Counted from the first letter of the stretch, positions 9,107 through 53,353 are shown. The stretch is DNA of 63,905 bases from an uncultured virus (IMG/VR IMGVR_UViG_3300007511_000006) (IMGVR_UViG_3300007511_000006), one strand, 5' to 3'. The notes: generated by a model not told the origin, from the letters alone. Translations and numbers: made by a program.

Positions 9107-10420
9107 ATGAGTGATAATGCACATCAAGTACACAATAGATCAATTATTAACACTAAACAGTCTAAATTACAATGTAGATTAAAATGGTCACTTAGCACCA
9201 TATTTTTAACTACAAATACGACTGCAAGTTGCCATAGATGTGATCATAATCCAATTACGGAAGATTTTAATTTTCATAATACTCATCAAAAGGTACATGC
9301 TCGATTGCAGATGTTGCGCGATGAGTGGCCAGAGTTAGGATGCGAACACTGTAGAGTTATTGAGCAGGCAGGAGGAATGAGTGATAGACTCTTACATGAC
9401 GACATGGGATTTGCCCCGTCATCTCCGCCTGAATTATTTGATAATCCAAATGCAGTTCATGTTACTCCAACGCAACTTGAAATATATTTCAGTAATCTTT
9501 GCCAATTATCCTGTACATATTGTGGTTCGTATTTTAGTAGTACATGGGAGGCAGAAGACAAAAAATATGGTGACATACATGATTTCATGTATCCTGATGA
9601 CCACAAGGCCGGCCGGCCTAATTATCAAGAACTTAAATATTTAGATAAAGTATTTGACTGGTTAGATAAAAATGGCCAGCACCTAAGATCATTATACATT
9701 TTAGGGGGAGAACCCTTTATACAACCACAGTCTGATCGTTTGTTAGATTTCATTGCAGGAAATGGTGATAAATTTAAAAATTTAGATTTATTCTTTTTTA
9801 GTAATCTATCAAGTGATAATATAGAACCAAAAATTATTAAATTAAAGCAACTTCTAGAAGAGGGTAGATTACACAATGCTCATATTGTCGGCAGTATTGA
9901 TTGTTGGGGTAAGGAAGCAGAGTATGTAAGATATGGACTAGATATAGAATTATTTGATAAAAACATGAAATATATAATCGACGCCGGACTTGACACTACA
10001 ATAAACATATGTTGGTCTCCTATATCTACTTTTACTATGCCTGATCTTATTGAAAAATATCAAGAATGGAATCAACGACATATTACGAGAGGGAAGGAAT
10101 GGGGTATGAATATTAGTTTAATGCAAGCCTCTGGTAAAGACTGGATGCACCCTTCAATATTTGGTCCGAAAATTTTAGATTGGGGATACAACCAATCAAT
10201 TGACATGTTAATAAATATTGCAAACGAAAATTCTGAAAGCACAACCAGGGAATCTGTCATTGAATATCTTGAAGGAATAAAAAAAGCAATTGAGTCGGAT
10301 ATTCCTAATAAAAAAGCACAACAGGAATTACATAGATATCTAACAGAACTGGATCGCAGGCGTGGAACAGATTATAGAGAACTTTTCCCTATAATCTACG
10401 AAGAGATTCATAAGCAATAA
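9107..10420 (+). CDS. Radical SAM protein with N-terminal Cys-rich (Twitch/SPASM-like) segment
   Basis: CQLSCTYC, LGGEPF; N-terminal SCHRC...GCEHC. Confidence 0.85.
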   Translation: MSDNAHQVHNRSIINTKQSKLQCRLKWSLSTIFLTTNTTASCHRCDHNPITEDFNFHNTHQKVHARLQMLRDEWPELGCEHCRVIEQAGGMSDRLLHDDMGFAPSSPPELFDNPNAVHVTPTQLEIYFSNLCQLSCTYCGSYFSSTWEAEDKKYGDIHDFMYPDDHKAGRPNYQELKYLDKVFDWLDKNGQHLRSLYILGGEPFIQPQSDRLLDFIAGNGDKFKNLDLFFFSNLSSDNIEPKIIKLKQLLEEGRLHNAHIVGSIDCWGKEAEYVRYGLDIELFDKNMKYIIDAGLDTTINICWSPISTFTMPDLIEKYQEWNQRHITRGKEWGMNISLMQASGKDWMHPSIFGPKILDWGYNQSIDMLINIANENSESTTRESVIEYLEGIKKAIESDIPNKKAQQELHRYLTELDRRRGTDYRELFPIIYEEIHKQ

Positions 10421-10435
10421 AACATAAATACAGTT

Positions 10436-12061
10436 ATGCGTTTTAATGAATTTAAATTATTTGAAGCAAATTTATCGTTTGGTGATTTCCATCAAGCTGC
10501 TGAAGAACGATGGGATGTTTTTTTAAATCGCGTCAAAGGAAAGATTCCATGGGACGGCACAATTGCACCTACTTTGGGTGGGCAAGAATATGATTATCCC
10601 AAAGCAAGATCCGGAACGTATCCTTATAATATATACATTGGATACGCAAATGCCACCAGCCAAAGTAAACTTTTAAAGTCAATTCAATCAGGATCCTTCT
10701 ATGGCTATCTAGACGGTAAATCTTGGGTAGTACCGGTTTATGATCCTAAAACTAATACACAATTAGACAATTATAGAATTTCAAATCTCTTTAAAGATCA
10801 TCAATTTGCCGAACCACATCGTATTAAAAGTAAAGATCAAATCGCAAATTTTGGTAATTTAACAGAATCCTTGGCAGGTGCAGGTTTAACAGCAAAATTT
10901 ACTAAACGTGTACAAGGCGGAGTCCAGCCTATCGAAGTTAAAGACATTCTTAAAATAATTTCAAAATTAACAGTAGATAATAGTAGTAGTCAAGAAGTAA
11001 AAATTAATTCAAAAGAATTACACAAAGAAGACGTGGTGTATGCTTCTGCAGAATATAAAAGTAATTTACAAGATAAAATTGTTTGGAGAATTAAAACTCA
11101 AGAACAGGCTTTTAGGGAACTAGTAGCGATTGGAGAAGGGAAGCATTTAGATAATCCAAAACTATTAGGCTTGCTTGGGGCAGTTGCAAATTATGCTAAT
11201 TCTCGATTAATGACGCAATACTCTAGATTTTTTGCAACGAATCTCAAAGTTGATGAGATTATAGTAGATACCGACGGTATAGGTGGTGCCGCTTCCTTGC
11301 AGTCTGGAGGAGGTACTAAAGCAGACCTATTTATAGTTGCTAACGGAAAAAAACTTAGATATGCAAATCTTTCATTAAAAGCCACTAATCCAGATATTGG
11401 ACAACAAGCACTTGTTGGTAAACCACAAGGAAACCTAACAGCAGAAAAACTAAAAGATCATTTGTGGAACAATTTGATAACTTTATGGAAAGGGTTTGAC
11501 GATGGTACAAACTATATCAATGTTGAAAATATACTTTCAAAAGAAGAGTATTTAAATTCCATTGGTATCACTAGTGATATGGATTCTAATCAAATCGAAA
11601 AGGCAATAAACAGCCAATTACAAGCTAGCCAGAAAAAGGTTCGGCCCGGTATACAAAAAATGTTCAGCGCAGTTGCGAACAATATTAAACAAATTTGGCT
11701 TAAAAACGATGATTCACAATCAGAATACGATTTTATACAAGCACTGGTAAACTTTGTTGAATATCATGCAGCCAGAGAAGATAATGTAGAGTTAGTTGAT
11801 TTTAAGGCAACCGGCGATTATAGTGTCCATTCTTTTAAAAACTTATATAAACTACTTAAAGATATAGATTTTGATGTCGGGGAATATAAGACAAACGCGG
11901 GTAACGTAGGATTTAAAGTTTATGATATCAATAATCCAAAAGATGTATTGGTGTCTTTATATTTTCAGCCGAGAGCAGGGCAATCCACATATAAACTGGC
12001 TGTAAAAAAGGGACCTCTACTGAAGAAAGTTACTAATGTGAGTCACAAACGTAATAAGTAA
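10436..12061 (+). CDS. Late protein with PD-(D/E)xK nuclease-like motifs
   Basis: NFGNLTE...TKADLF...NLSLKA; TAAATA-N5-ATG start; N-terminus MRFNEFKLFEA. Confidence 0.5.
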   Translation: MRFNEFKLFEANLSFGDFHQAAEERWDVFLNRVKGKIPWDGTIAPTLGGQEYDYPKARSGTYPYNIYIGYANATSQSKLLKSIQSGSFYGYLDGKSWVVPVYDPKTNTQLDNYRISNLFKDHQFAEPHRIKSKDQIANFGNLTESLAGAGLTAKFTKRVQGGVQPIEVKDILKIISKLTVDNSSSQEVKINSKELHKEDVVYASAEYKSNLQDKIVWRIKTQEQAFRELVAIGEGKHLDNPKLLGLLGAVANYANSRLMTQYSRFFATNLKVDEIIVDTDGIGGAASLQSGGGTKADLFIVANGKKLRYANLSLKATNPDIGQQALVGKPQGNLTAEKLKDHLWNNLITLWKGFDDGTNYINVENILSKEEYLNSIGITSDMDSNQIEKAINSQLQASQKKVRPGIQKMFSAVANNIKQIWLKNDDSQSEYDFIQALVNFVEYHAAREDNVELVDFKATGDYSVHSFKNLYKLLKDIDFDVGEYKTNAGNVGFKVYDINNPKDVLVSLYFQPRAGQSTYKLAVKKGPLLKKVTNVSHKRNK

Positions 12062-12069
12062 GGTATATA

Positions 12070-12639
12070 TTACTTTAATAAATTCATATGCACAACCACT
12101 AAATGTGCATAACCTACTGAGTGACTCTTTTTAAAATAATACGAATTAGGATCAGTTGGTACTTTCCAAACTTCTTGCCCTATTTCCTTCCACGTTCTAT
12201 TTGCTAGATAGCGTTTAGCAGGGCGTATTACTGCTAAAAACATTGCCATTCTAGGAATACTGTCAGGCATCATCTTCTTTATTAAATCATAATGATTGCT
12301 GATATGTATAATCTGTTCAGTATATTCTCTTTCAGCAAGTCTTTCCCACGGTGGCTCTGTAAACATTAAATCTATTAAATGTTCTTCGCTTTGTACTTGG
12401 TTGTATATATTAACATTAAGTAAATCTAATTTAAAGTATCCTCGCTCTTCTGCGTCCTTATGATCGAGTGAGCAAATACCTTTTACTGGGTCTGTTGGAA
12501 CATCAGTAAAATAAACTCCAGTATTATGTTTTATTAGTTCATTATTGCGTATAATAGTCGCAGGAGTATGGTTTTGTAACTTTTCAAGTACTTCGTTTCT
12601 ATTCGCGAAGTCTATATCAATGTCAAATTTAAGGCTCAT
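12070..12639 (-). CDS. Miniature DNA polymerase III alpha (DnaE)-like catalytic core
   Basis: DIDIDF, KHNTGVY, GYFKLDLLN, LAVIRP, FKKSHSVGYA motifs in about 190 aa. Confidence 0.8.
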   Translation of the reverse strand: MSLKFDIDIDFANRNEVLEKLQNHTPATIIRNNELIKHNTGVYFTDVPTDPVKGICSLDHKDAEERGYFKLDLLNVNIYNQVQSEEHLIDLMFTEPPWERLAEREYTEQIIHISNHYDLIKKMMPDSIPRMAMFLAVIRPAKRYLANRTWKEIGQEVWKVPTDPNSYYFKKSHSVGYAHLVVVHMNLLK

Positions 12640-12830
12640 ATTGGTTTCTTGCTCTTGGTACAATTGGTAATGCTAACTAAATTCATAATTGGACGAACAA
12701 TGTATTCATCATTACGTGATACATTTACGCCACCAGGACCACATTTATATCCTAATTTTTCACTTAACCATAACTTATTAAACCATTTATGGTGGTGTGG
12801 GTATTTTTTATAGGCTTCCGAATCATCCAA
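12636..12830 (-). CDS. Short hypothetical protein, possibly a truncated gene
   Basis: 64 aa, overlap-coupled to both neighbours; WFNKLWLSEKLGYKCGPGG...VRPIMNL then an unrelated-looking tail. Confidence 0.5.
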   Translation of the reverse strand: MDDSEAYKKYPHHHKWFNKLWLSEKLGYKCGPGGVNVSRNDEYIVRPIMNLVSITNCTKSKKPI

Positions 12831-13008
12831 ATTTACTTTCCATCCATGCTATTTTATCTTTGAGGTGTAACTTTTCTTTCTTGAGTTCAGTTAACTTTGA
12901 GTGAGTTTCGCCTATGTCATTATTCTCTAGTTTCCAAATTATGTTATCTAATTCTTTATGCCGTTTCTTTAACAATTTTAAATCAAAATCTACTATATTA
13001 TCTGTCAT
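12823..13008 (-). CDS. YdcH/DUF465-like coiled-coil protein
   Basis: LKKRHKELDNII...LKKEKLHLKDKI; AGGAG RBS. Confidence 0.7.
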   Translation of the reverse strand: MTDNIVDFDLKLLKKRHKELDNIIWKLENNDIGETHSKLTELKKEKLHLKDKIAWMESKFG

Positions 13009-13017
13009 CGTTTTCTC

Positions 13018-13719
13018 CTACATGGTTGCTTCACTTAAAATGTGCTTTGCCCATTCTACGTCCGCCGGAAACGCTTCGAAGCGTTTACTCCAGTATACCG
13101 GATCTATGAAGTCATTTATTAATCCTAACTGCTCGTCTGTCATTTTATCGAGCATATCCATTCCTGTATCGCTATGGTATATAACCCATGGACTTATTTT
13201 CCCATTTCTTATTAGTGCTACTGCTTTATTAAAACTTACAAATTTAAAAAAATGATTGAACGAAGAATTGTTATTATTTGCCCAATCCTCCATACTTAAT
13301 ATGCTACGCTCTAATGCATCTCTAGCATTTTCTGTTTTAATATATGGAAGTAAATATTCTTCATACACAGAATCCTTACACCAATTATCTAACTTAATGT
13401 TACTTTTAATAACATAATCAATAAAGTAATCCGGATTGATTACGTTGATGTTTATAATATGTTTGCCAAACTTTACAAACGCATTATAATATTGGCTACT
13501 AGCAAAGTGCTGGTAGTCTTTAAAGTTAGCAGAACCTTGTGTTAGTTCATAAAAACGTTTATAAGCAATGTATCCTATCTGTACATGCTTTTCGTCTTTC
13601 TGTCCGTGTCTACGTTTTTGTTCACATACATGAGCCGCTAGTGTTTTTTCTCTAGCAAAACTCCTGTTACAAAATTTACATTCATAGCCACTGTTTGATT
13701 GACTTATCGTCGTATCCAT
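13018..13719 (-). CDS. C2H2-type zinc-finger protein
   Basis: YECKFCNRSFAREKTLAAHVC at the N-terminus. Confidence 0.7.
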   Translation of the reverse strand: MDTTISQSNSGYECKFCNRSFAREKTLAAHVCEQKRRHGQKDEKHVQIGYIAYKRFYELTQGSANFKDYQHFASSQYYNAFVKFGKHIININVINPDYFIDYVIKSNIKLDNWCKDSVYEEYLLPYIKTENARDALERSILSMEDWANNNNSSFNHFFKFVSFNKAVALIRNGKISPWVIYHSDTGMDMLDKMTDEQLGLINDFIDPVYWSKRFEAFPADVEWAKHILSEATM

Positions 13720-14149
13720 GTTCTATTGCTAATTGTTTGAGTTCCTTTTTATCGCATACTTCTGCATATGCTTCTATGTCACTAAGTTTCCACGACGTAT
13801 ATATTTCTTTGAGAAACCTAGTTTTCTTATTATCTTTTGTTTCTTTTTTCATTGGCAAATACTTGCGTTTAAATGTGCCAATGCTTGGATTGATAGCACA
13901 CAGTATTTTGTAAGTTAAGTCGGGATGCTTACTTACCTCCCAAAAGTTAATGTTTAGTTCATTATTGGTTGCGCGAATCATATACTCCTGTAGATCATTG
14001 GAGCCTGTTGCACTTGCGGAATATTTAAGTTGTAAATATGGGCTAAACGCTTTCTTTTTTTCTGCGCTTAAATTCTTGTACCAGTTGTAATCCTTTTTAT
14101 CTATTGCGTTAAATATTTCGCTTAATGGTAATACTGCTGGCTTAGGCAT
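13682..14149 (-). CDS. Probable clamp-loader small subunit (gp62-like)
   Basis: Size and pattern (KKAFSPY...N...HPDL...YLP) resemble T4-like gp62; replication context. Confidence 0.45.
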   Translation of the reverse strand: MPKPAVLPLSEIFNAIDKKDYNWYKNLSAEKKKAFSPYLQLKYSASATGSNDLQEYMIRATNNELNINFWEVSKHPDLTYKILCAINPSIGTFKRKYLPMKKETKDNKKTRFLKEIYTSWKLSDIEAYAEVCDKKELKQLAIEHGYDDKSIKQWL

Positions 14150-14681
14150 TCTCGAGTCCTTTTATATACTCTTTTATTGTAACATTTTCTAAGTATTTGT
14201 CAAGTTCAAATGGGCAATTATTAGCAATTCTAACAATTCTGCCTTTTCCTCTGTATCTGTTACATACTGCTTTAATGTTATATTGTTCGATAATAAAACC
14301 GCCTGATTCTTTATTACCGCTATAATAGTTTTCTGTGTCGTTATATATATTATTTACCTTTCCACTTGTACTTTCTAAATCAAAACCAATCATATGTATT
14401 TCGTTATGTGTTCGCATTGCTATTATTAATGCAATTAATCCTGAATTCATCATTGGTTCATATTCAGGAATATCTTCTAAATAATGCACATTTGCTACAT
14501 TAACGCCACTTTGTTCAAACTCCTCACGCATTGGTGAATCAAGTATTATTAAGTGATCTGGAATAAACTCTCTATATAAAGCATTGCATCCATAAATTTC
14601 CCACTCGTTTCTTTTAAACAAGTTTAAATCTATTTGCCTACGGCTTTCGCCATTGCCTACTACTAATGCTTTCACCACCAT
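14142..14681 (-). CDS. MptE/DUF115-like (sialyltransferase-fold) protein
   Basis: ALVVGNGESR, YGCNALY, NSG, IHMIGFD; paralogous to 47688..48434. Confidence 0.6.
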   Translation of the reverse strand: MVVKALVVGNGESRRQIDLNLFKRNEWEIYGCNALYREFIPDHLIILDSPMREEFEQSGVNVANVHYLEDIPEYEPMMNSGLIALIIAMRTHNEIHMIGFDLESTSGKVNNIYNDTENYYSGNKESGGFIIEQYNIKAVCNRYRGKGRIVRIANNCPFELDKYLENVTIKEYIKGLENA

Positions 14682-14953
14682 CCTGCCGCTACAACTATTC
14701 CTATTACATTTACAACGGCAAAATAACCTGTTAGTAATACCGGCCAAGCAAGTTTACGTCTGTAATATGCATAAATTCCTGTTATTGATCCTATTAAAAA
14801 GGCCGGATATACTATTAACATATTAGGATCGTCTGCTGTTAATGCCAAATTTAAACTCGCGGCTACAGTAAAAATAAAACTTACTAATTCAAAATAAAAT
14901 GCTACCTTGTCACTGTAGTAAGACTCTTCCCAAAATTTTAAAATTTTACCCAT
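14672..14953 (-). CDS. Small membrane protein (about 3 TM helices)
   Basis: Three hydrophobic stretches; likely start MGKILKF at 14953. Confidence 0.65.
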   Translation of the reverse strand: MGKILKFWEESYYSDKVAFYFELVSFIFTVAASLNLALTADDPNMLIVYPAFLIGSITGIYAYYRRKLAWPVLLTGYFAVVNVIGIVVAAGWW

Positions 14954-16106
14954 TGCCAAATGTGCCAGAAAAGCCAAAGAAAATTCTATTTCTATTAAAG
15001 TCATCTGTAACTATATGAGAAAAATCCATCTCAAAGTTTAATGAGTTATCATCTTTCTCAAACAAATTGAATGTTTTTTTAGTTCCATACATTTGATAGT
15101 TGTCCGTCAAGTCAAACTTTAATTCAAAATCATAACTAGTGTGTAGGTAATAGGCGCCTATAGCAATGGCGGCTATACCTATGACTGCTAGAGCAGTATC
15201 AGAATCACTATTTTTCTTCTTAGGTGCATCTTCATGGCCACAGTATGTTATGTTTCTACCATTGCCTGTACCTACGGCACCCATAGAGCACATTAGATCA
15301 CCTAATGCTTTTGCTTGTGCCGACTCACTGAATAACGAATACTCAGAAACTACTACTGGTTTGCCCAGTTTCAATGCCTCAGTCAACATTCTTTTTGCTG
15401 TCTCTACATCTGATATGTAATCACCTGTAGTATGTCTACCTATTTGTAGATAGATGTAATCTGCATTGGTGTAGTATCGTGTATCGTGTTTGTATCCACC
15501 AACACCATCTGACAAATGTACCGCAACAGGTTTGTCTGTCTTTGACTTTATGAAAGCAACATAATCATTCACTTGTTCGGGTGACCAATACTCATCACAT
15601 TCTAGACAAGCAACATAGGCAGATGCTTGGTCATCATAGAGTCGGATGATTTTCTCCATGAATACCTTGTGGTGGGCGGCATTACCTTTCCAATCCCTGT
15701 GTGCAGATTCGGGTGTCATCCACAATACAGGTTTGAGTCCTGCTTGATTTAGTTCTATAAGTCTTTGCCTAAAGTTATCATTGGGGTCTACTATACCACC
15801 TGGCAAATGACCTCTAGAGGCACGGACATACATATCAATATGTGTATCACCGGTGTTGACTAGTCGTTGTCTAAAGTTTGCTCGTTCTGCATCTGTCCAA
15901 GTGTTAGACAAATACATTAAGGTTGTGTTAAACTTCTTTGACTGATCGCCAGTGTGTGGGCCTATCTTGCCTAATAGAAACGATGATCTTACGCCGTGAA
16001 GTGAATATGTTTTATCGTATGCTTGGCTTACACTTATACCTACTATGCTTAAACAAGAAAGATATATTACTAGTAGCGTGGGCCAAATAATTCGTCGAAT
16101 ATTCAT
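14946..16106 (-). CDS. Exported glycoside-hydrolase-like (TIM-barrel) protein with C-terminal membrane anchor
   Basis: Signal-peptide-like N-terminus; CLECDEY and PVVVSEY as clan GH-A-like acid/base and nucleophile; hydrophobic helix then amphipathic beta strands. Confidence 0.5.
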   Translation of the reverse strand: MNIRRIIWPTLLVIYLSCLSIVGISVSQAYDKTYSLHGVRSSFLLGKIGPHTGDQSKKFNTTLMYLSNTWTDAERANFRQRLVNTGDTHIDMYVRASRGHLPGGIVDPNDNFRQRLIELNQAGLKPVLWMTPESAHRDWKGNAAHHKVFMEKIIRLYDDQASAYVACLECDEYWSPEQVNDYVAFIKSKTDKPVAVHLSDGVGGYKHDTRYYTNADYIYLQIGRHTTGDYISDVETAKRMLTEALKLGKPVVVSEYSLFSESAQAKALGDLMCSMGAVGTGNGRNITYCGHEDAPKKKNSDSDTALAVIGIAAIAIGAYYLHTSYDFELKFDLTDNYQMYGTKKTFNLFEKDDNSLNFEMDFSHIVTDDFNRNRIFFGFSGTFGNG

Positions 16107-16145
16107 ATGAATATTTAGTTGTTTTCATATGAATATTTAGTTGTT
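16102..16145. repeat. Perfect 22-bp tandem duplication
   Basis: TTCATATGAATATTTAGTTGTT at 16102-16123 and again at 16124-16145. Confidence 0.95.
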
Positions 16146-16153
16146 TAGTTTTT

Positions 16154-16654
16154 TTACATAACTTGAGTGACATCAATAACTTCCGATTGTTTATTAATTT
16201 CACTAATAAAATAAGCACATTGTGGCTTAGGACCATCATGTAAAGGAACTGCCAGTAATTGTCCTGTTTTAAGTTTAGGAAAGTACCATTTAACTTCTGT
16301 ATAGATATCTACAATGTCAATTTCCGCATAATTGTGCATATAGCCACTTAGTGGATTGTATAAAAAGGCTTCAAACCCTCTATCATTTACACTAGTAAGA
16401 GGCAACACTTCTAAATCACCTACTTCAGGACTACCTACCACGATATGCCAATCTACAGGCATTGGAATTTTATACTTACCAAGTTGTAGTACTACTGCCG
16501 GTGCGTTAAAAGATTCCAAAAAGATAAGTGGTATAAAAAAGTAATCCGGATCGGCAGGATTACTATTATCTAATATACAAAATCTTACATCATCTACCTT
16601 TTCAGGCATAGCGTTCATTGGGTATGAAACGTCATCTAACGTTAATATTCTCAT
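16154..16654 (-). CDS. Hypothetical phage protein
   Basis: 166-aa ORF in operon context downstream of uvsW. Confidence 0.7.
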   Translation of the reverse strand: MRILTLDDVSYPMNAMPEKVDDVRFCILDNSNPADPDYFFIPLIFLESFNAPAVVLQLGKYKIPMPVDWHIVVGSPEVGDLEVLPLTSVNDRGFEAFLYNPLSGYMHNYAEIDIVDIYTEVKWYFPKLKTGQLLAVPLHDGPKPQCAYFISEINKQSEVIDVTQVM

Positions 16655-16672
16655 TGAGTTTTCTCTTATAAT

Positions 16673-17095
16673 TTAAAATGGTGGATCATCATCAGTAGGA
16701 TCACTAATTTGATCATCTGCTGGTTTGGGTTTGTAATCTGGATTTTTAACTATTTGTTTTGTTCGTGGGTTAATTATATAATATTGGTGTGTTCTGTCTT
16801 TTGATCTAGCCGGAATTGGGTTACCTTTAATTGTAGGGCGTGTAGGATTACCAGCATCATCATAATCCGGAGTAGATGGAGAGCCCGGACCTGTATTCAT
16901 ATATTTTGTATGAACGAGTTTTTCCAGTGAAGCCATCTGCTTTACTAATAATATAATTTCGGATTGTAAATCTTTATTTTCAAGTTTAACCTTATCAATT
17001 TTGTCTATTAGACTTTTGTGTTCTAATTTAATATCGTCTAATTCTTTGATTAAGTCGTGGTACTTTTTATAAAGATCGCTAACTTGTGAACTCAT
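16673..17095 (-). CDS. Hypothetical coiled-coil protein with Pro/Asp-rich tail
   Basis: 140-aa ORF with heptad pattern; TAAATA just upstream. Confidence 0.6.
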   Translation of the reverse strand: MSSQVSDLYKKYHDLIKELDDIKLEHKSLIDKIDKVKLENKDLQSEIILLVKQMASLEKLVHTKYMNTGPGSPSTPDYDDAGNPTRPTIKGNPIPARSKDRTHQYYIINPRTKQIVKNPDYKPKPADDQISDPTDDDPPF

Positions 17096-17108
17096 TGCTT
17101 ATTATTTA

Positions 17109-18560
17109 TTATCCTTGCCAATTCACTTTTTCTACAGTAAATGGATATTCTGCTTCCCTGTAATAACTTTTTCTTTTAGTTAAATGTCGTTTAGCATACT
17201 TGCAAGTGCTAGTTATATCCCAAATTTGTACAAAGTCTTTATCTTCTGCTTTTCTAATACCACGGCCAATACTTTGTATTACTCTAACAAAACTTTTGCC
17301 TGGTTCAATTAATACCAAATTAAATATACGTGGTATGTTAATGCCAACTGCCGCAACGCCATATGTTGCAATAATTATTTTTGCGTCTGCTGTTCTAACA
17401 TCATCATAATGTTCTTTTCTTTCATCTGCCTTAGTAGCACCGCTCACAAATACACTTCCATCTAACCTTTGTTCAAGCAGTTTGCCGGCGCTTATTCTAT
17501 CAACTAATATCAAAGTGTTTCCACTATCTTTAACATCATCAATAAAATTGCCTATGTAATCTATTCTATCTTCGTTGCTTAAAAGATACTTCAATTCACT
17601 CTGATAATTATTATATTCGCCATAATCATTAAGTTGTACTATATTAACGTGGCAATTTGCTAAGACGCCCTTGTCTTGCAGGTCAGCGGCGGCTATTCTA
17701 TTAACTACATCACCAATACTAACTTTTAGTGACATCCATTCATACTTTTCTTTTGGTATTGTGCCTGTTAAACCCCAACGTATAGGCACATTAGCAAACT
17801 GTTGCGTTAGCAATTGCTTCAGCACATCTGCCTTACTCATATGGACTTCGTCTACCATAATACACGCCACGCCCTCTATGAAGTCTTCTATAGTAACATC
17901 TACTTCTGCATTACGTGTTTTCTTTGTAAGTATGTTTAAACTTTGCCAAGTGCAAATGGTATGCGTTCTGCCGTATTCTTTTCTGTCACCATAAAAGACA
18001 CCCACATCAAGTCCTAAGTTTATGTAGTCCTCTTCGGTTTGAGTCACAAGACTTTTGTTTGGCACAATAACTATAGTGCGCCCATATTTCTCGCATATAT
18101 TACTAAGTGCGGCAGTAATAAGTGTTTTGCCTGCGCCAGTCGCGACCTCTTGTATGGACTGTGGATTTTCTAAAAAGCGATTAATTACTTCAACTTGATA
18201 ATCTCGTAATACAATAGACTGTCCTTCATGCGTATGTCCGCTAGGCCATTTGACGTGATTATAACTGTTTACATTTACTTTATCAAAAGTTAGTTCAACA
18301 GGATTCCTATAATCAATTAATTCTATTTTGTAATTGTCGAGTAATGGTAATATATCGCCCAACAAGTTTGTATATGTACTACCACCAAGATTAAAGAAAG
18401 ACGCTTTACCATCCCAGCGTCCTAAACGAACTGCTGGCATAAATCTTGCGTGGGGGATATCAAATTTAAATTTATCGACTAACTTTCGTCTGTCTGTTAA
18501 ATCTAATCCTTCAAATTTACAATTTACTTCGTCTTTTAAATATAACTTACACTTTGGCAT
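17109..18560 (-). CDS. uvsW: UvsW-like SF2 DNA helicase
   Basis: LRDYQ, ATGAGKT, DEVH, GLTGT, QSIGRGIR. Confidence 0.92.
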   Translation of the reverse strand: MPKCKLYLKDEVNCKFEGLDLTDRRKLVDKFKFDIPHARFMPAVRLGRWDGKASFFNLGGSTYTNLLGDILPLLDNYKIELIDYRNPVELTFDKVNVNSYNHVKWPSGHTHEGQSIVLRDYQVEVINRFLENPQSIQEVATGAGKTLITAALSNICEKYGRTIVIVPNKSLVTQTEEDYINLGLDVGVFYGDRKEYGRTHTICTWQSLNILTKKTRNAEVDVTIEDFIEGVACIMVDEVHMSKADVLKQLLTQQFANVPIRWGLTGTIPKEKYEWMSLKVSIGDVVNRIAAADLQDKGVLANCHVNIVQLNDYGEYNNYQSELKYLLSNEDRIDYIGNFIDDVKDSGNTLILVDRISAGKLLEQRLDGSVFVSGATKADERKEHYDDVRTADAKIIIATYGVAAVGINIPRIFNLVLIEPGKSFVRVIQSIGRGIRKAEDKDFVQIWDITSTCKYAKRHLTKRKSYYREAEYPFTVEKVNWQG

Positions 18561-19581
18561 AATATGCTGGGCCAGGACCTAACTGTTTTAATATCTTTTT
18601 ATCCTCATCGCTCAGCGGCGAGTTTACAGTATTATAATAACATACCTTAGGTATTTGGTCAAGATAAATGTTGAATGTTTTTTCATTAACCATTCTTGTA
18701 ACAAATATTAACTGCGGGTTTACTTCGCTTTCTATTAATTCTTGAACGTTATGAGCGTAATAAACTAAGCAGTCTTTTTTACACACTCTTTCTGCTTTGC
18801 CTATAGCATCATCCTTAATAAACTGCTTTATTACTTTAACCACCATCGGTTCAAACTGTGTATCTATCATTACTTGTTGTTTAGTTACGGCCCTCACTTC
18901 ACTGTTTTGTTTAGCAATGCCTGCGTCTACCTTTGGACCAAATAATAAACGCTCTGGTGAATAAAATACTATTGGAAGTCTATTGTATTTCAAAGCATAC
19001 AAAATCATATGCTTTAGTTTCTTTTCCTTGTCTTTTACTGAGCCTGTTAACGACACACGAGTATTGGATGCCATAATATGCTCTACAGAATCGTTAAGCA
19101 ATAGTTTTATTTTATTACTTAAACCATAACCAAGTTCTGCAGACTTGTCTATTAAATCCCAAAGATCAATTATTTCTTTTTTTTCTAAATAATCTAACAA
19201 TGCCTGTGATGCGTTTTTAATATACGGTTTAAAACTATTATCAACACAAAGTTCAACTCTGTATTCATCTTCAGACTGCTTTATTTCGTTTATAGTATCT
19301 AAATATTCTTGTATTTCGTTGCTGTATTCTACTTCGGTAATCTCAAGGCTTTGTAAAAAGTCTTGTATAAAAGTAAAATTAATCTCTGCTAAACTAAAAG
19401 CCCAAGCTTTACGCTCTACATCCCAAGTCAAGTCTGTATTGCTTTGCTTACCGTGTGCGAATAGTCTGCGTGGTATATCTGAAGTGCTAAATCTTTCAGT
19501 AATGTCTAATCCCGTCATTGAAAACGGAAGTTTTAGATAAATCTTTTTGTCGTCTATATAAACTTTGACAGGTTTATTCAT
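18547..19581 (-). CDS. Hypothetical protein
   Basis: 344-aa ORF overlapping the uvsW start. Confidence 0.65.
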   Translation of the reverse strand: MNKPVKVYIDDKKIYLKLPFSMTGLDITERFSTSDIPRRLFAHGKQSNTDLTWDVERKAWAFSLAEINFTFIQDFLQSLEITEVEYSNEIQEYLDTINEIKQSEDEYRVELCVDNSFKPYIKNASQALLDYLEKKEIIDLWDLIDKSAELGYGLSNKIKLLLNDSVEHIMASNTRVSLTGSVKDKEKKLKHMILYALKYNRLPIVFYSPERLLFGPKVDAGIAKQNSEVRAVTKQQVMIDTQFEPMVVKVIKQFIKDDAIGKAERVCKKDCLVYYAHNVQELIESEVNPQLIFVTRMVNEKTFNIYLDQIPKVCYYNTVNSPLSDEDKKILKQLGPGPAYYAKV

Positions 19582-19583
19582 AA

Positions 19584-19614
19584 TAAAAAGAAAGGGGAGA
19601 CACTAGGCCTCCCC
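19584..19614 (-). terminator. Intrinsic terminator of the early ATPase operon
   Basis: GGGGAGGC-CTAGT-GTCTCCCC-TTTCTTTTT. Confidence 0.75.
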
Positions 19615-19622
19615 AAGTGTAT

Positions 19623-19659
19623 TAGATACTTATCGCCGGAGCGAGGCAATAAGTATCTA
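19623..19659 (-). promoter_or_regulatory. 15-bp RNA hairpin with anti-Shine-Dalgarno loop UCGCUCC
   Basis: TAGATACTTATTGCC-TCGCTCC-GGCGATAAGTATCTA on the minus strand (one G-U pair). Confidence 0.6.
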
Positions 19660-19671
19660 TTTTGGCGGGTG

Positions 19672-20736
19672 TTAACGAAGTATGCTAACCTCCGCCATAC
19701 GTCTCCAATTATCTTTGGAGATTTTACGCAAGTCACCAATCTTGAGAGCAGTACGAAGTGACATTTCTCGAACTCGGTCTTTGTTCTTTTCCATGTAGTC
19801 AAGAACCTCGTCTTGCGTTTGTTTATTAAACTTGTATCCGTTGAACAATTCACCGCTTTTGGCAATCTGTTTGATACGCAGGATCTTGTCACGCATTGTG
19901 TCCAACGTAAGGTCCAAGTAGTGGCAACGTGACTGGAGTGCTTCCAAGTGGTCCTGTACTTTCTTAGAGCGTATATTCTCAAACTTCACGTTAGTGATGA
20001 AGATTGCTGACCCGCGGAAGTCAAACGAATTAGGAATGCCTTCTGCACGGAGTTTGACACTGTCAGCATTCCAATGGATTCGGCGTCTCTTACCCGAGTC
20101 CAATGCCGCTTTCAGTATGTTGAGTGACAAGTCATCAAACAATACAGTGTCGCAGTCATCAAACACCAACACGTTGCCTGGATCGCTGTACTCATACAGT
20201 TTCGCGTACAGTCCAAGAGCAGTCATCGCACCTTTTACAACATCGTATCGTGTACGAGTGCCTTTGATTTTGTCGAACAGTGAGGCCTTTTCCAGGGTGG
20301 TCTCTACACCGTAGGACTTACCAACTCCAGGAGGGCCTGTGACAATCATTGCACGGACATCACCATTGATAGTCGCTTCAGTCATTTCGTTGAGGATGCT
20401 GAAACGCTCTTCAATGCGGTTCATGACCTCTTCGTCAGTTTCTTCGACCTTCTCTACAACGGGACTTTTAGACGAGGTATTTCCTGCAGCCATTTTCTTT
20501 GCATATTCCTCGGCTTCACTCTCGCCCACCATTTCAATATGTAGTGGAGACTCAACCTGGATTGCGAATGTATACTGCGGGAATCCCAGCATATCAGTTC
20601 CGTCTACGGTAATCTTGCCGCCGCCTTTAGTAGACGGACGATAATTTTTGACCAGTGGGAAAATGACATTTTCCACATCCTTAGTGGGAGAGTCTTTACG
20701 GTTGATGATGCCTTTGAGGACTTTAATGTGTGACAT
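19672..20736 (-). CDS. P-loop (AAA-like) ATPase, early gene
   Basis: GPPGVGKS, VLVFDDCD, FITN, ALQSR; start MSHIKV with AAGGAG RBS; visibly GC-richer codons. Confidence 0.8.
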   Translation of the reverse strand: MSHIKVLKGIINRKDSPTKDVENVIFPLVKNYRPSTKGGGKITVDGTDMLGFPQYTFAIQVESPLHIEMVGESEAEEYAKKMAAGNTSSKSPVVEKVEETDEEVMNRIEERFSILNEMTEATINGDVRAMIVTGPPGVGKSYGVETTLEKASLFDKIKGTRTRYDVVKGAMTALGLYAKLYEYSDPGNVLVFDDCDTVLFDDLSLNILKAALDSGKRRRIHWNADSVKLRAEGIPNSFDFRGSAIFITNVKFENIRSKKVQDHLEALQSRCHYLDLTLDTMRDKILRIKQIAKSGELFNGYKFNKQTQDEVLDYMEKNKDRVREMSLRTALKIGDLRKISKDNWRRMAEVSILR

Positions 20737-20761
20737 AATTCGCTCCTTATATGTCAGTGGA

Positions 20762-21007
20762 TTAAACTTGGCGGGGGACGTCATATCGTCCCTGCATGGT
20801 GAAGGTGCCGAGGCGCGTGGCATTGCCAGTTGCGGGCCAATGTACTTCGCCCTTGAACGCCTGCACTCTCAACGGAGTATCGAAGCCACTGGTTTTGGGA
20901 TTGGCATTAAACTGCCCAACAGCACCCACCAGCGTGTCGTCGTAAACACAAGTCTCACGCTGAGATCCAGCAATGTTTCGAAAGTTGATTACAAAAGTAT
21001 TACGCAT
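20762..21007 (-). CDS. Small early hypothetical protein
   Basis: 81 aa, AAGGAG RBS. Confidence 0.65.
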   Translation of the reverse strand: MRNTFVINFRNIAGSQRETCVYDDTLVGAVGQFNANPKTSGFDTPLRVQAFKGEVHWPATGNATRLGTFTMQGRYDVPRQV

Positions 21008-21184
21008 CTATCGCTCCTTGTTAGTTGGGTCTGACAAGAAATCATTTATCGCTTCGACAAACATATTCATTACTTCTTGTCTCCAAAGACTAGTATATCC
21101 TATGCCGATAGCATTTCCTACTGACTTTATTTCTTCATCATTGTAAGACTCAAGAAGTTTGTTTACAATTTCTGTTCTAGTCAT
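21008..21184 (-). CDS. Small early hypothetical protein
   Basis: AAGGAGA RBS before GTG-ATG (MTRTEIV); first gene after the promoter. Confidence 0.6.
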   Translation of the reverse strand: MTRTEIVNKLLESYNDEEIKSVGNAIGIGYTSLWRQEVMNMFVEAINDFLSDPTNKER

Positions 21185-21218
21185 CACGTTTCTCCTTGTT
21201 TCTTTAGCGTATATATAC

Positions 21219-21246
21219 ATTATACTGATTTTGTCAGATCTGTCAC
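21219..21246 (-). promoter_or_regulatory. sigma70-type early promoter
   Basis: GTGACA-N16-TATAAT with an upstream A-tract. Confidence 0.6.
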
Positions 21247-21260
21247 TTTTTTTTGTACTC

Positions 21261-21355
21261 TAAGTGCTTGATTTTATTGAAGAATCAACTATTTTTGATA
21301 TTTTGGTAAGTGTTTGAAATCATTGAAGAAAAAAGCCAATAAAATCAATGACTTA
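21261..21355. repeat. Three copies of a TAAGTnnTTGA-based motif (two direct, one inverted)
   Basis: TAAGTGCTTGATTTTATTGAAGAA 21261-21284; TAAGTGTTTGAAATCATTGAAGAA 21307-21330; inverted CAATAAAATCAATGACTTA 21337-21355. Confidence 0.8.
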
Positions 21356-21362
21356 CTAATTG

Positions 21363-22232
21363 CTACTTTTTCTTAGTTTTCTTAGTAGTCTTTTTCTTGG
21401 ATTTTTTAGTGGTTTTTGGAGATTTCCACTTATCTGTAACTTTGCGGATTTTAGTCAAATTATCTATTTTGATGTCAATTTCTTTAGGGTGGGCAAAAAC
21501 GTTGATTACAGCACCTGTGGGATCTACAAAAATACACTCAGAATTTTCAAAGTAATTATCTGGATTAAAATCCGGAGAGGGAAGCCAATAACAGTCATAA
21601 TCCATATCTTTAAAAGTTTGTAGCAATTCTTTTTGGTTTTCTTGGCATTCTGCAATAACAAATGGTCTATGAGTTGAGAATAGCCTTGTACCAGTATGTA
21701 GAACATCTGATTCATTACCTTCTACATCTACTTTAACCAAATTACAATAATCGAGACCAATATCATCTAAATTAAACACCGCGCAACGTTCTACATCATT
21801 GCCTGTATCATTGTCAGATGTTTTTAATGCGCCATGATTCATTTCGTCATCTACTCTATTCAATGGCAAGTATAATGGCCGTTTTGTTCCCACTGCTCCT
21901 TTGACTGGCGTTACGTTAAATGCACTATTAATAGTCAGATTAGTCATTAAGAAAAAATAATTTAAATGGCTTGGTTCAAAAGCATATACTTCTCCTTCCT
22001 TGCCTACTATTCTAGAATAAAACACAGAATGTAATCCTATATTAGCCCCTACATCAATAACTTTAGCACCTGGTCGTAATAATTGTGATGCCAATGCTAG
22101 TTCTGCCTCTGCATATTCACCGTATAAATCTAAACTACGACCGACAATTGTGTCTTTGATATTATATGCAAAATCTCCGTGCTTACACGGCTTAACTCTA
22201 ACATTTTCACATTGTAGTATAGGAAAACCCAT
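21363..22232 (-). CDS. FkbM-family methyltransferase
   Basis: IDVGANIG, AFEP, KVDVEGNE; Lys-rich tail. Confidence 0.9.
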   Translation of the reverse strand: MGFPILQCENVRVKPCKHGDFAYNIKDTIVGRSLDLYGEYAEAELALASQLLRPGAKVIDVGANIGLHSVFYSRIVGKEGEVYAFEPSHLNYFFLMTNLTINSAFNVTPVKGAVGTKRPLYLPLNRVDDEMNHGALKTSDNDTGNDVERCAVFNLDDIGLDYCNLVKVDVEGNESDVLHTGTRLFSTHRPFVIAECQENQKELLQTFKDMDYDCYWLPSPDFNPDNYFENSECIFVDPTGAVINVFAHPKEIDIKIDNLTKIRKVTDKWKSPKTTKKSKKKTTKKTKKK

Positions 22233-51500: not shown

Positions 51501-53353
51501 GCGACACTAATATCATTATCAGATACTGTTGTAGTAATGTTATTACCACCAGTAAAGGTTAGTGTATCTGTACCAACTGTTACACTATCATCTGAACCTG
51601 AATCAGCGGCAACTGTTAATGTGGCTGAACCAACTTGTGAATCAACATATGCTTTAATTGATTGTTGTGTAGCAAGTGCTGTTGCACTGTCACTACCCAT
51701 TGCGTCCTCATCTAAGATTGATGACACTGTAGCACCTGAAGCAAGTGTTAAGTCTTCGCTAATTACTACTGAACCGTCGGAAGCGATAGTAAATTTATCT
51801 GTACCGTCGGAAATTTCAACAGTTATTAGGTTTGCTGTTTGTGAGCCTACACCTTTAACTGCTAGTGTAATCTCGTCTGTTGTATCACCAGTGATTGTTG
51901 CACCGGCGGCTACTACCAACTGATCGTTGGCTGTTAGTGTTGTAAACGTACCAGCTGCTGGTGTTGATCCACCAATTACTGAGTCATTTACTGTTCCACC
52001 ACTAATAGTTAGGTCATTGTCAACGTATGCATCAGCAATTGCTGTGCCGTTCCATACGCCTGTACCAATTGTACCAACTGTGGCTAGTGATGAAGCGGAA
52101 GTTACATTATTTAATGTATCTAGTGCGCTTTCGAAATATGTTTCGAAATCTGTTAGGGCAACTTGTACCATAGTACCGTCATCGTTAACAACTACACGAT
52201 CAAACAATTCAAGTGTTGTTGCTGTTGCGGCTGTGTCGCCGTCTACGATATTCAACTCTGCGGTTGTTGATGTGATATCATCTAAAGTATTAAGTTCAGC
52301 TGCGGTTGCTGTTAAGCCAAGTGTTACTAATTGAGCGGCTGCGTTAGCATCATCAAGTAGCGCCTTACCTGCGGCTGTTAAGTCGTAAGTAGCGGCTGTA
52401 CCTGAGCCTGTAAATTGGATACCCTTGTCGGCCGCTGATGCTAAACCAGCAAGAGCTGCTAGTTCTACATCGTATGCCTGTACGTCTGTACCAATTGCTA
52501 GGCCTAGTGATGTTCGTGCTGTTGCACCTGTTTCTAATGTGAAGTTAGAACCATCACCAACGATAATGCCGCCATCTGTTACTGCAAGACCTGCGACATC
52601 TGCTAATTGTGCGTCATATGCCTGTACATGTGTACCAATTGTTAAACCTAATGATGCTCTTGCTGTTGCACCCGTTTCTAATACGAAATTAGAACCGTCG
52701 CCAACAATAATGCCACCGTCTGTTACAGCAAGACCTGCGACATCTGCTAATTGTGCGTCATAGGCTTGTACATCTGAGCCAATTGCTAGGCCTAGGTTTG
52801 TACGTGCGTCAGAAGCTGTTGATGCGCCTGTACCACCAGCTGCCACAGCAACGTCAGTTGCTGACCAAACACCTGTGGTAATTGTACCTACAGATGCTAG
52901 TGATGTAGCAGATGAAATAGTATTTTGAGCCGCTGTTGTAATAGTACCTTCAATATTGCCAGCAATAATGTTTGCTTGACCTGCAACGGATATGTTACCT
53001 GCGGTACTACCAGTTTCTGTTGTTGTGATAAAGTTAAATTTATCTGCGGATTCGTCCCAAATTAAACCTACGTTGGTATCGTCACCACGTTCTACAACAA
53101 AACCTGAGTCAACTGCGCCTGAGCCAGAAGCGTTTGCACTGAATACTAATAGAGGATCTTCAATAGACATATTTGTAGTGTCAACAGTTGTTGTTGTACC
53201 ATTAACAACAAGGTTGCCAGAAACAGTTAGGTTTGATCCGTAAGTCATGTCATCTTCTAACTTACTACCAGCGATAGCGGCAGAAGCTGCGATTTTGGCA
53301 TTACTAACGGCACCATCCGTAATCTGATCTGTATCTATTCTAGTTAAAGCCAT
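48539..53353 (-). CDS. Long repeat-rich tail fibre/appendage protein with C-terminal autocleaving-chaperone-like domain
   Basis: 1604 aa, Ala/Gly/Thr-rich, seven VQAYD modules; C-terminal ADLAERY...EPGTVV...GVVST.P...GRVPVKV...GKALE. Confidence 0.8.
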   Translation of the reverse strand: MALTRIDTDQITDGAVSNAKIAASAAIAGSKLEDDMTYGSNLTVSGNLVVNGTTTTVDTTNMSIEDPLLVFSANASGSGAVDSGFVVERGDDTNVGLIWDESADKFNFITTTETGSTAGNISVAGQANIIAGNIEGTITTAAQNTISSATSLASVGTITTGVWSATDVAVAAGGTGASTASDARTNLGLAIGSDVQAYDAQLADVAGLAVTDGGIIVGDGSNFVLETGATARASLGLTIGTHVQAYDAQLADVAGLAVTDGGIIVGDGSNFTLETGATARTSLGLAIGTDVQAYDVELAALAGLASAADKGIQFTGSGTAATYDLTAAGKALLDDANAAAQLVTLGLTATAAELNTLDDITSTTAELNIVDGDTAATATTLELFDRVVVNDDGTMVQVALTDFETYFESALDTLNNVTSASSLATVGTIGTGVWNGTAIADAYVDNDLTISGGTVNDSVIGGSTPAAGTFTTLTANDQLVVAAGATITGDTTDEITLAVKGVGSQTANLITVEISDGTDKFTIASDGSVVISEDLTLASGATVSSILDEDAMGSDSATALATQQSIKAYVDSQVGSATLTVAADSGSDDSVTVGTDTLTFTGGNNITTTVSDNDISVALDATVSGLTALSSGQLNADNIRIDGNVISSTDTNGNITLTPDGTGDVVISGDLTVNGTTTTVNSTVTTLDDPIMTLGGDTAPGSDDDKDRGIEFRWHNGSTAKVGFFGYDDSVSKFTFIPDATISGEVASGTVGNVIFGNVEGTITTAAQNSITSATSLASVGTIGTGTWEGTDVGVAHGGTGASTASDARTNLGVAIGSDVQAYDAELAAIAGLTSAADKGIQFTGSGTAAVYDLTSAGKALLDDADAAAQRTTLGLVIGTDVQAYDAELAAIAGLTSAADKGIQFTGSGTASTYDLTSAGKALLDDADAAAQRTTMGVAIGSDVQAYDAGLADIAGLAVTDGNIIVGDGSNWTAETGATARASLGLTIGTHVQAYDAELAAIAGLTSAADKGIQFTGSGTAAVYDLTAAGKALLDDANAAAQLVTLGVTPTAAELTAAADGDTAATSTTLADADRVVVNDGGTMVQVALTDFETYFETALDTLNNVTSASSLATVGTITSGTWEGTTVAVDQGGTGATSLTANSLLTGNGTSAVQAEANITYDGTTFGVDDAAVFNESGGDNDFRIESSGNANMFYLDAGNDAIGLLTATPNAGSVLDMSSSTESMVLPSGTTAQRPGSPAAGMFRYNSTNSNFEYYNGSSWKGATTEFTVVRSETKTGDGTTTDFTGLNSDLTTAGCIVTVNGVVQLPTTAYGISGTTITFTEAPANGDAIEIREITTTTSVNALEDADGDTKVQVEESSDEDIIRFDVGGTEIMTLTSSALLPSVDSNGTTGFDLGGSSDKWRDLYLSGDSIYFGDLVLKDSGSNTLQVFQSDGTTPAANEIKSITKSGTNGVGDVGQSDNKFATVYATTFNGISTSAQYADLAERYTSDVIYEPGTVVSFGGDAEVTMTSDSMDSRIAGVVSTNPGFLMNEGLEGTNVAVALTGRVPVKVTGTIRKGDMLVSAGEGYAKAEANPRLGSVIGKALEDFNGTSGIIEVVVGRL
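49960..52800 (-). repeat. Intragenic module repeats (two module types, order A-A-B and B-B-A-B); approximate bounds
   Basis: A = LGxxIGxxVQAYDAxLADxAGLAVTDGxIIVGDGSN...; B = ...VQAYDxELAAxAGLxSAADKGIQFTGSGTA... Confidence 0.9.

Follow-up and report, generated by a model that had tools for sequence, protein, structure and literature searches.

The minus-strand operon described here ends in a hairpin whose loop mirrors the ribosome-binding site (RBS) of an ATPase gene in the same operon. By comparing related loci we show that, in diverged jumbo phages of aquatic origin, a predicted open loop at the operon end, on the mRNA strand, has been kept complementary to the Shine-Dalgarno (SD) sequence of the ATPase gene and the spacer next to it. 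Conservation of the loop and its covariation with the ATPase RBS lend good support to RNA-RNA pairing, and we hold it to be highly probable that the two pair as RNA. The pairing is regarded as real; its function is predicted, and is most likely that of a built-in brake on translation. The stretch of DNA analysed (63,905 nucleotides, hereafter the window) is part of the genome of an uncultured aquatic (marine) jumbo phage. The ORFs around the operon resemble T4-type UvsX, UvsY, gp32, UvsW and terminase (named by eye from their translations), and neither tRNA nor tmRNA genes were found in window positions 1-63905. Two overlapping records of the same phage, G001 and G002 (57% and 50% complete), served as stand-ins for the whole genome.

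The operon consists of a sigma70-type promoter, ORFs of 58, 81 and 354 aa, the hairpin and an intrinsic terminator, all on the minus strand. The promoter at its head (21219..21246; GTGACA-16-TATAAT) was assigned by its match to the consensus at 11 of 12 positions, from which we infer early transcription; a host-type promoter is also listed for the homologous gene of phage PA5oct in supplementary table S3 of PMC7318152. The 58-aa ORF (21008..21184), of unknown function and without a family match, is restricted to near-identical records, and its RBS, AGGAGAA (21190-21196), pairs with only four loop bases. The 81-aa ORF (20762..21007, ATG at 21007) was without a PHROG, Pfam or NCBIfam family, the best score in a further family search being 0.84. 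The 354-aa product (19672..20736, ATG at 20736) is an AAA ATPase of phrog_1250 with a weak AAA match, and a homologue of NrdC.10, sharing 35% identity with the T4-type NrdC.10 of Acj9 (nrdC.10) and 51% with the PA5oct protein; the search returned neither a solved structure nor an NCBIfam family for it. NrdC.10 has been noted as an AAA ATPase-like ORF that is conserved but has no known function (PMC1524935). The GC3 values of the 81-aa and ATPase genes (0.54 and 0.50) lie above those of five flanking genes (0.24-0.30).

Several further features were observed around the operon. In RNA contigs of relatives from three studies, the 81-aa stop and the ATPase start are separated by a spacer (20737-20761 in the window) that varies by small insertions. 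Just upstream of the promoter, at 21261-21355, lie three repeats of the type TAAGTnnTTGA, two on the plus strand and one inverted. Similar copies cluster again in G002 at about 201,100-201,200 and occur in G005 at 52,747, 181,078-181,113 and 187,191-187,227; such a repeat precedes the ATPase gene in 12 of 215 distinct loci and is possibly an operator or a recombination site. An FkbM-type methyltransferase gene (21363-22232) adjoins the operon upstream, in a gene order shared with G005.

The features reported in the first-pass annotation, namely a 15-bp hairpin with the loop UCGCUCC, a terminator and the sequence GGAGCGA at two RBSs, are all present as described. The hairpin occupies 19623..19659, positions 19659-19645 pairing with 19637-19623 in a minus-strand stem that includes one U-G pair and shows two-sided changes in relatives. 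Its loop (19638..19644) has a predicted probability of 0.96 that all seven bases are unpaired. The terminator (19584..19614) combines an 8-bp stem within 19614-19594 with a U-tract, and the 106-nt tail as a whole folds with -35.6 kcal/mol (z = -6.1), as good a value being reached by none of 200 shuffles. The ATPase RBS (20740..20746), the conserved target, and the RBS of the 81-aa gene (21011..21017), a lineage-specific complement of the loop that overlaps the last codons of the 58-aa ORF, both read GGAGCGA, preceded by AA and followed after 3 nt by ATG. All seven bases are unpaired with a predicted probability of 0.74 in the former and 0.07 in the latter, which is thus mostly paired. The two RBSs and the loop account for all three matches to GGAGCGA in the window, a number at chance level (shuffle mean 2.38; at least three in 43 of 100 shuffles), so that the evidence lies in the placement of the motif and its covariation in relatives, not in its count. 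RNA contigs (ten runs listed with a best share of 0.06, four of them compared, mostly representing relatives) cover parts of the ATPase and 81-aa genes; none reaches into 19567-19663, which is uninformative either way.

The ATPase loci collected numbered 372, of which 342 were usable and 215 distinct; 95 representatives were separated by a tree distance above 0.15. Loci were left out for want of a hit (1), a complete 3' end (10), a start (14) or a sufficiently long tail (5), and start codons were chosen by a simple SD score, a few probably wrongly (e.g. L328 and L358). Natural classes of the ATPase RBS include GGAGCGA, GGAGCUAGA and GGAGUUCA, and the RBS and 3' motif occur in matched versions: GGAGCGA with UCGCUCC, GGGAGUA with UACUCCC, AGGAGCUAGA with UCUAGCUCCU, GAGUGAGA with UCUCACUC, and AGGAGUUCA with UGAACUCCU. 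A complement of at least 7 nt to the locus's own RBS was found within the first 110 nt after the stop in 61 of the 95 representatives, compared with a mean of 20.7 and a maximum of 37 when RBSs and tails were shuffled (10,000 permutations that ignore relatedness). Pairs of RBS and tail taken from the same class showed such a complement in 69% of cases, pairs from different classes in 6.6% of 4,656. Five matched classes (GGAGCG, GGAGCT, GAGTGAG, GGAGTT and GGAGTA), defined after the data had been seen, agree between RBS and loop in 75 of the 77 representatives on the maximum-likelihood tree that could be classed at both ends. Of the two disagreeing loci, L367 is a true mismatch and L404 a mis-pick with its motif at +203; a further 18 representatives are unclassed at one or both ends, and 11 of these, the GGGGGUA-RBS lineage among them, are without any element. 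By parsimony the RBS changed 6 times on the tree, the loop likewise 6 times and the two jointly 7 times, equivalent to about five shared events, and an independent-pairs test cannot reach significance here because each class offers only one to three pairs.

The comparative outcome named in the first-pass annotation as speaking against the idea did not occur: the loop is conserved in relatives and tracks the ATPase RBS. The match exceeds the GGAG core, extending into the non-SD spacer and changing along with it in five classes. Among 363 other GGAG-led gene models only seven (1.9%) are followed by a complement of at least 7 nt, none with seven unpaired bases, whereas all four ATPase genes subjected to the same test have one with seven to eight bases unpaired; the gene models came from a simple script of our own applied to five records, of which G001 and G002 overlap. 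The RBS has drifted under an unchanged loop in L367, L371, L071, L374, L377 and L410. A joint loss was also observed: the lineage of L052, L055, L056 and L058-L070 has no anti-RBS hairpin and its ATPase RBS has turned into GGGGGUA, and the sister lineage (L054, L057, L229 and L231) keeps both RBS and hairpin.

As judged from these comparisons, the conserved partner of the loop is the ATPase RBS. The first-pass annotation had named two targets, of which the ATPase RBS is upheld by the covariation of the loop, whereas the match of the 81-aa gene is lineage-specific and its RBS predicted to be mostly paired. The homologous RBS matches the loop in the window lineage, L153 and L159, and lacks the match in L014/L015/L158, L157, L008, L016 and L163; it is likely a second, optional target in the window lineage. 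In G007 the ATPase gene has its own promoter and appears monocistronic, and no further gene led by its 10-nt loop match, AGGAGCTAGA, was found in that genome. Where genes have been inserted after the ATPase gene, the motif lies further on, at the apparent operon end (+239, +325, +1214 and about +790 to +930). The set of other genes led by GGAGCGA that had been envisaged for this phage is not large: the 7-mer occurs seven times in the 202 kb of G002, against six for a control pattern, and only two of these are RBSs, G001 adding one and G005 a few. Other candidate targets, late genes included, have homologues that do not track the loop class across clades.

On balance, we think that the tail is a cis-acting anti-RBS element that would lower initiation on the ATPase gene once the 3' end exists. 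Host RNA polymerase would transcribe the operon early from the sigma70 promoter, and ribosomes would have free access to the ATPase RBS for as long as synthesis of the 1.1 kb up to the hairpin takes. In the finished tail the loop, which would never be crossed by elongating ribosomes, may dock on the RBS through a 7-bp loop-strand helix that competes with the 16S anti-SD; docking would lower further initiation and probably also expose the mRNA to decay, and ATPase would then be made in one brief burst per transcript. Nested early transcripts with many GGAGCGA sites would be capped by this loop in the freshwater relatives. The RBS-loop match comprises only 7 bp in the window, with a duplex energy of -12.4 kcal/mol compared with -8.5 kcal/mol for a 16S anti-SD, and docking in cis is estimated at about -5 kcal/mol after a rough loop-closure cost. 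Folding of the whole mRNA cannot show the interaction because it is a pseudoknot, and the locally open ATPase RBS (0.74) argues against co-transcriptional silencing.

Distal anti-SD sequences do repress in vivo in Bacillus subtilis (PMC12697547), as does a 3'-UTR anti-SD motif in icaR (PMC3868564). In the B. subtilis reporters of Gill et al. (2025; PMC12697547), anti-RBS sequences of 8-12 nt pair with an SD that lies hundreds of bases upstream of them, which blocks initiation and accelerates decay, and we propose such distal folding, by analogy, as the physical basis of the phage mechanism. Those anti-RBS sequences were synthetic insertions that natural coding sequences avoid, whereas the phage sequence is kept by selection and lies in a loop. 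In the same study the repression weakens with distance, and anti-RBS 8-mers placed between pairing segments or hairpins in the 3' UTR lost most of their effect; structure around an anti-RBS can cancel its action, which counts against a naive reading.

We regard it as rather unlikely that the main action of the tail is in trans. On that reading a stable piece of about 85 nt comprising hairpin and terminator, or else the 3' ends of abundant full-length mRNAs, would accumulate and block every GGAGCGA-type RBS, so as to shut down a set of early genes and perhaps restrain some late membrane genes. Two strong hairpins would leave a nuclease-resistant remnant, loops are fixed where the ATPase RBS has drifted, and tandem loop copies exist. 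In G010 the ATPase gene closes a 12-kb cluster and is followed by two anti-RBS loops. The freshwater clade, the only one with a large early set led by GGAGCG, provides many candidates. Its early region is an array of promoter-RBS cassettes, and GGAGCG accounts for 15 of 134 GGAG-type RBSs in G010 and 16 of 135 in G011, and for 10 of 23 and 6 of 20, respectively, of the promoter-fronted GGAG genes, among which no class is more frequent. GGAGCGA also leads genes that are situated downstream of the element or well away from it (G011 16853 and 19218; G012 163880 and 169447; G013 80754 and 82691). A CsgF-like gene (named by eye) in three freshwater genomes (L487 / G013 9271; G010 3526; G012 106766) has the RBS GGGAGCGAA, which in G013 is a 14-nt complement of the loop region; the G013 RBS may itself fold over the start codon. 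Against action in trans stand the two motif RBSs in G002 and the one more in G001 that make up the set in the window lineage, the failure of the other candidates to follow the loop class, and the rough estimate that a 7-bp duplex needs about micromolar RNA (-3.9 kcal/mol at 1 uM, -1.1 at 10 nM). A promoter-like site within the operon (19736-19708) matches 9 of 12 consensus positions, which is at chance level, and G013 has two separate early clusters, each capped by its own element (73488 and 80313), as would be expected of a cis arrangement.

The freshwater cassettes, in which near-consensus sigma70 promoters with GGAGC-type RBSs drive small unknown genes interspersed with tRNA-like sequences, resemble PeSL early regions and extend over 10,400-21,400 in G011 (L465 and L466), 87,000-99,200 in G010 (L449 and L450) and 69,000-84,000 in G013 (L485). 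At about 21,322-21,375 in G011 (L466), ACTCCTTTT precedes the terminator of the second early cluster and is complementary to AAAAGGAG, which is common to several RBSs of that cluster; it may be a second form of the element or due to chance. Two further sites were rejected as elements, G013 133562 for lying within a long coding sequence and G006 193258 for being on the wrong strand for the candidate targets.

The covariation supports pairing and not the sign of its effect on translation. The pairing could instead close the mRNA into a circle that protects the RBS from nucleases at times of ribosome scarcity, or hold the terminating ribosome close to the start so that it reloads, and in this way sustain ATPase output, a reading that would fit selection for high output as suggested by the near-consensus promoter, the open RBS and the high GC3, and a 7-bp helix that is easily displaced. 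We consider it improbable, since occlusion of the SD lowers translation and stability in the cases tested (PMC12697547; PMC3868564) and the GGAG core lies within the helix, joined in one clade by the AUG.

In 13 loci of the window clade the stem is 92.7% paired, 4 of 14 pairs have changed on both sides and CGCUCC is invariant, figures that derive from related sequences and do not amount to a probability. Stems from different clades bear no relation to one another. The motif is present nearby in 69 of 95 representatives, where it is unpaired at 0.75, compared with 0.43 for the region; one freshwater clade has it in single-stranded sequence ahead of a hairpin and not in a loop. In the GAGTGAGA clade, loop pairing across the SD, AUG and codons 2-3 can reach about 19 bp (at most about 19-22, interrupted). 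The long loop of the GAGUGAGA clade can pair with the SD and a second time over the AUG and codons 2-3; the AUG-spanning match uses a U.G pair that is possible only in sense-strand pairing. The 5' half of the GAGUGAGA-clade loop also matches the RBS of an upstream gene (ACAGAGGA) in several loci. Many tails of this class (L073-L080 and L233-L312) were observed to carry an extra first hairpin, whose loop often carries a partial repeat of the anti-RBS (TTCTCACTTAC or ACTCACTC) and gives up to two or three docking sites.

That the opposite strand or the DNA is functional, the GGAGCGA loop being a decoy for an RBS-binding protein or the sites being inverted binding or recombination sites flanking the cassette, is highly improbable in our view. 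The antisense strand folds better in 46 of 69 cases and gives the better duplex in 50 of 70, a bias we put down to its G-rich loop, and some freshwater internal loops would be wobble pairs on that strand. The strand tests are mixed, three of them not supporting the mRNA strand, and the earlier statement that a G-U pair favours it is supported by a strict count of isolated wobbles, but neither by a loose count (72 G.U against 52 A.C, p = 0.09) nor by fold and duplex energies. The strict count covers closing stems and follows a rule chosen after the other strand tests; for the mRNA strand it finds 25 G.U and 4 A.C among 74 stems, and 15 and 2, respectively, among the 48 stems of representatives. 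The sense-only U.G pair of the GAGTGAGA clade also speaks against the opposite strand, as do the lack of an antisense promoter pointing into the hairpin in the stretch scanned and searches for CsrA, which returned no match in five records while the control was detected. An antisense gene led by the reverse strand of the loop was rejected on inspection because its start codon is inconsistent. Chance or descent of a relic, suggested by the resemblance of CUCC-rich loops to the anti-SD, the chance-level count of the 7-mer in the window and the mere five or so independent joint changes, is largely refuted by a match that takes in part of the non-SD spacer and follows its changes through five classes in spite of rewritten stems, by the 1.9% background in other genes and by the general depletion of anti-SD 8-mers from bacterial coding sequences (PMC12697547).

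Among known systems, the cis-acting brake we favour is closest to icaR of Staphylococcus aureus, in which a pyrimidine-rich 3'-UTR anti-SD is complementary to the SD of the same mRNA (PMC3868564), as is the loop of the phage element to its own SD. The icaR mRNA has a long 3' UTR and relies on a stretch of about 40 nt as an RNase III substrate (PMC3868564), whereas the phage UTR is about 85 nt long with a match of 7-11 nt, and its duplex of 7 bp in the window, or about 19-22 interrupted bp in one clade, falls short of such a substrate. The phage element also differs in being a dedicated hairpin before the terminator, in belonging to a lytic phage, and in the joint change of RBS and loop across lineages. 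The element would work like icaR, with which it shares no sequence homology. Rfam gave a best score of 24.3 bits against a cut-off of 50 for window positions 19300-21500 and no matches in 14 related loci. Fold-back of the 5' and 3' ends is also a feature of the small-toxin type I mRNA aapA1 of H. pylori. Inhibition by fold-back is described for the hok mRNA, and a delay linked to the 3' end for RNAIII/hld; these encode small toxins or haemolysin, hok remaining silent until its 3' end is processed (PMC3868564); the phage product is instead a 354-aa AAA ATPase, and its RBS, predicted to be open during transcription, implies an order of on first and off later, unlike hok. Neither a small toxic peptide with an antisense antitoxin nor any evident antitoxin RNA was found in the operon; the 58- and 81-aa ORFs have no family match, and their loop match is not kept.

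In T4, RegB inactivates early phage mRNAs at GGAG SD sites (PMC3014915), and the phage element may, by analogy, do by RNA what this protein endonuclease does by cleavage. Searches for RegB and RegA each gave no match in five records, the control genome likewise being without one. The PeSL cassettes of T4-type phages (PMC4122927; PMC2839356) share with the freshwater relatives their arrays of sigma70 promoters and common RBSs. Their stem-loops lie just upstream of the promoter (PMC4122927), whereas the phage element ends the transcript and mirrors the RBS, and the window hairpin is single and at the operon end; the word 'complementary' is absent from PMC4122927. Like 3'UTR-derived sRNAs, the tail has an exposed C/U-rich seed loop upstream of an intrinsic terminator. 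Candidate targets on other transcripts are few in the marine lineages and many in the freshwater clade.

The tail had no relative among cultured phages, apart from one 37-bit chance match. Seven of eight cultured NrdC.10 homologues (Acj9, T2, RaK2, BF, MA9V-3, PVA8 and D508) were without an RBS complement of at least 7 nt within 500 nt of the stop; the eighth, PA5oct, has an 8-nt complement at +23, but this is hidden within a stem and does not vary among its 11 records. The 9-bp hairpin concerned (L502 9890-9934; PA5oct 249,889-249,933) follows the NrdC.10 homologue, its 3' arm being complementary to the RBS (8 Watson-Crick and 2 G.U pairs) and its 5' arm RBS-like. It is a lead only: a cultured phage could here possess the element in a sequestered or switchable version. 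No expression timing for this gene was found in the text or spreadsheet of the PA5oct paper, and a scan of viral contigs with the PA5oct protein returned no relatives. Genome contigs yielded a single locus, in a Gammaproteobacteria MAG; this copy, of the GAGTGAGA class, is not enough to identify the host.

Few natural long-range interactions between 3' UTR and RBS have been reported for bacteria, three being cited in PMC12697547, and we found neither a phage case nor this element in the open-access literature, although supplements to comparative-genomics studies may list the motif. The natural compensatory variants provide a ready design for testing whether the tail limits the number of translations of its own mRNA, and as a portable 40-nt module it could serve as a tunable expression limiter. 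A broader idea, conceivable but doubtful, is that a large group of aquatic jumbo phages end their early phase by RNA alone, anti-RBS loops at early-operon terminators reading, in cis on nested transcripts and in trans as stable 3' fragments, a phage-private extended SD code (GGAG plus 3-6 lineage-specific bases), silencing the set of early genes and sparing most host and late RBSs; if true, this would be an RNA counterpart of T4 RegB, with an address code that co-evolves with its reader. The element is also relevant to how large phages bring early protein synthesis to a close, and it singles out NrdC.10, an uncharacterised ATPase, as a protein for which dose or timing is important.
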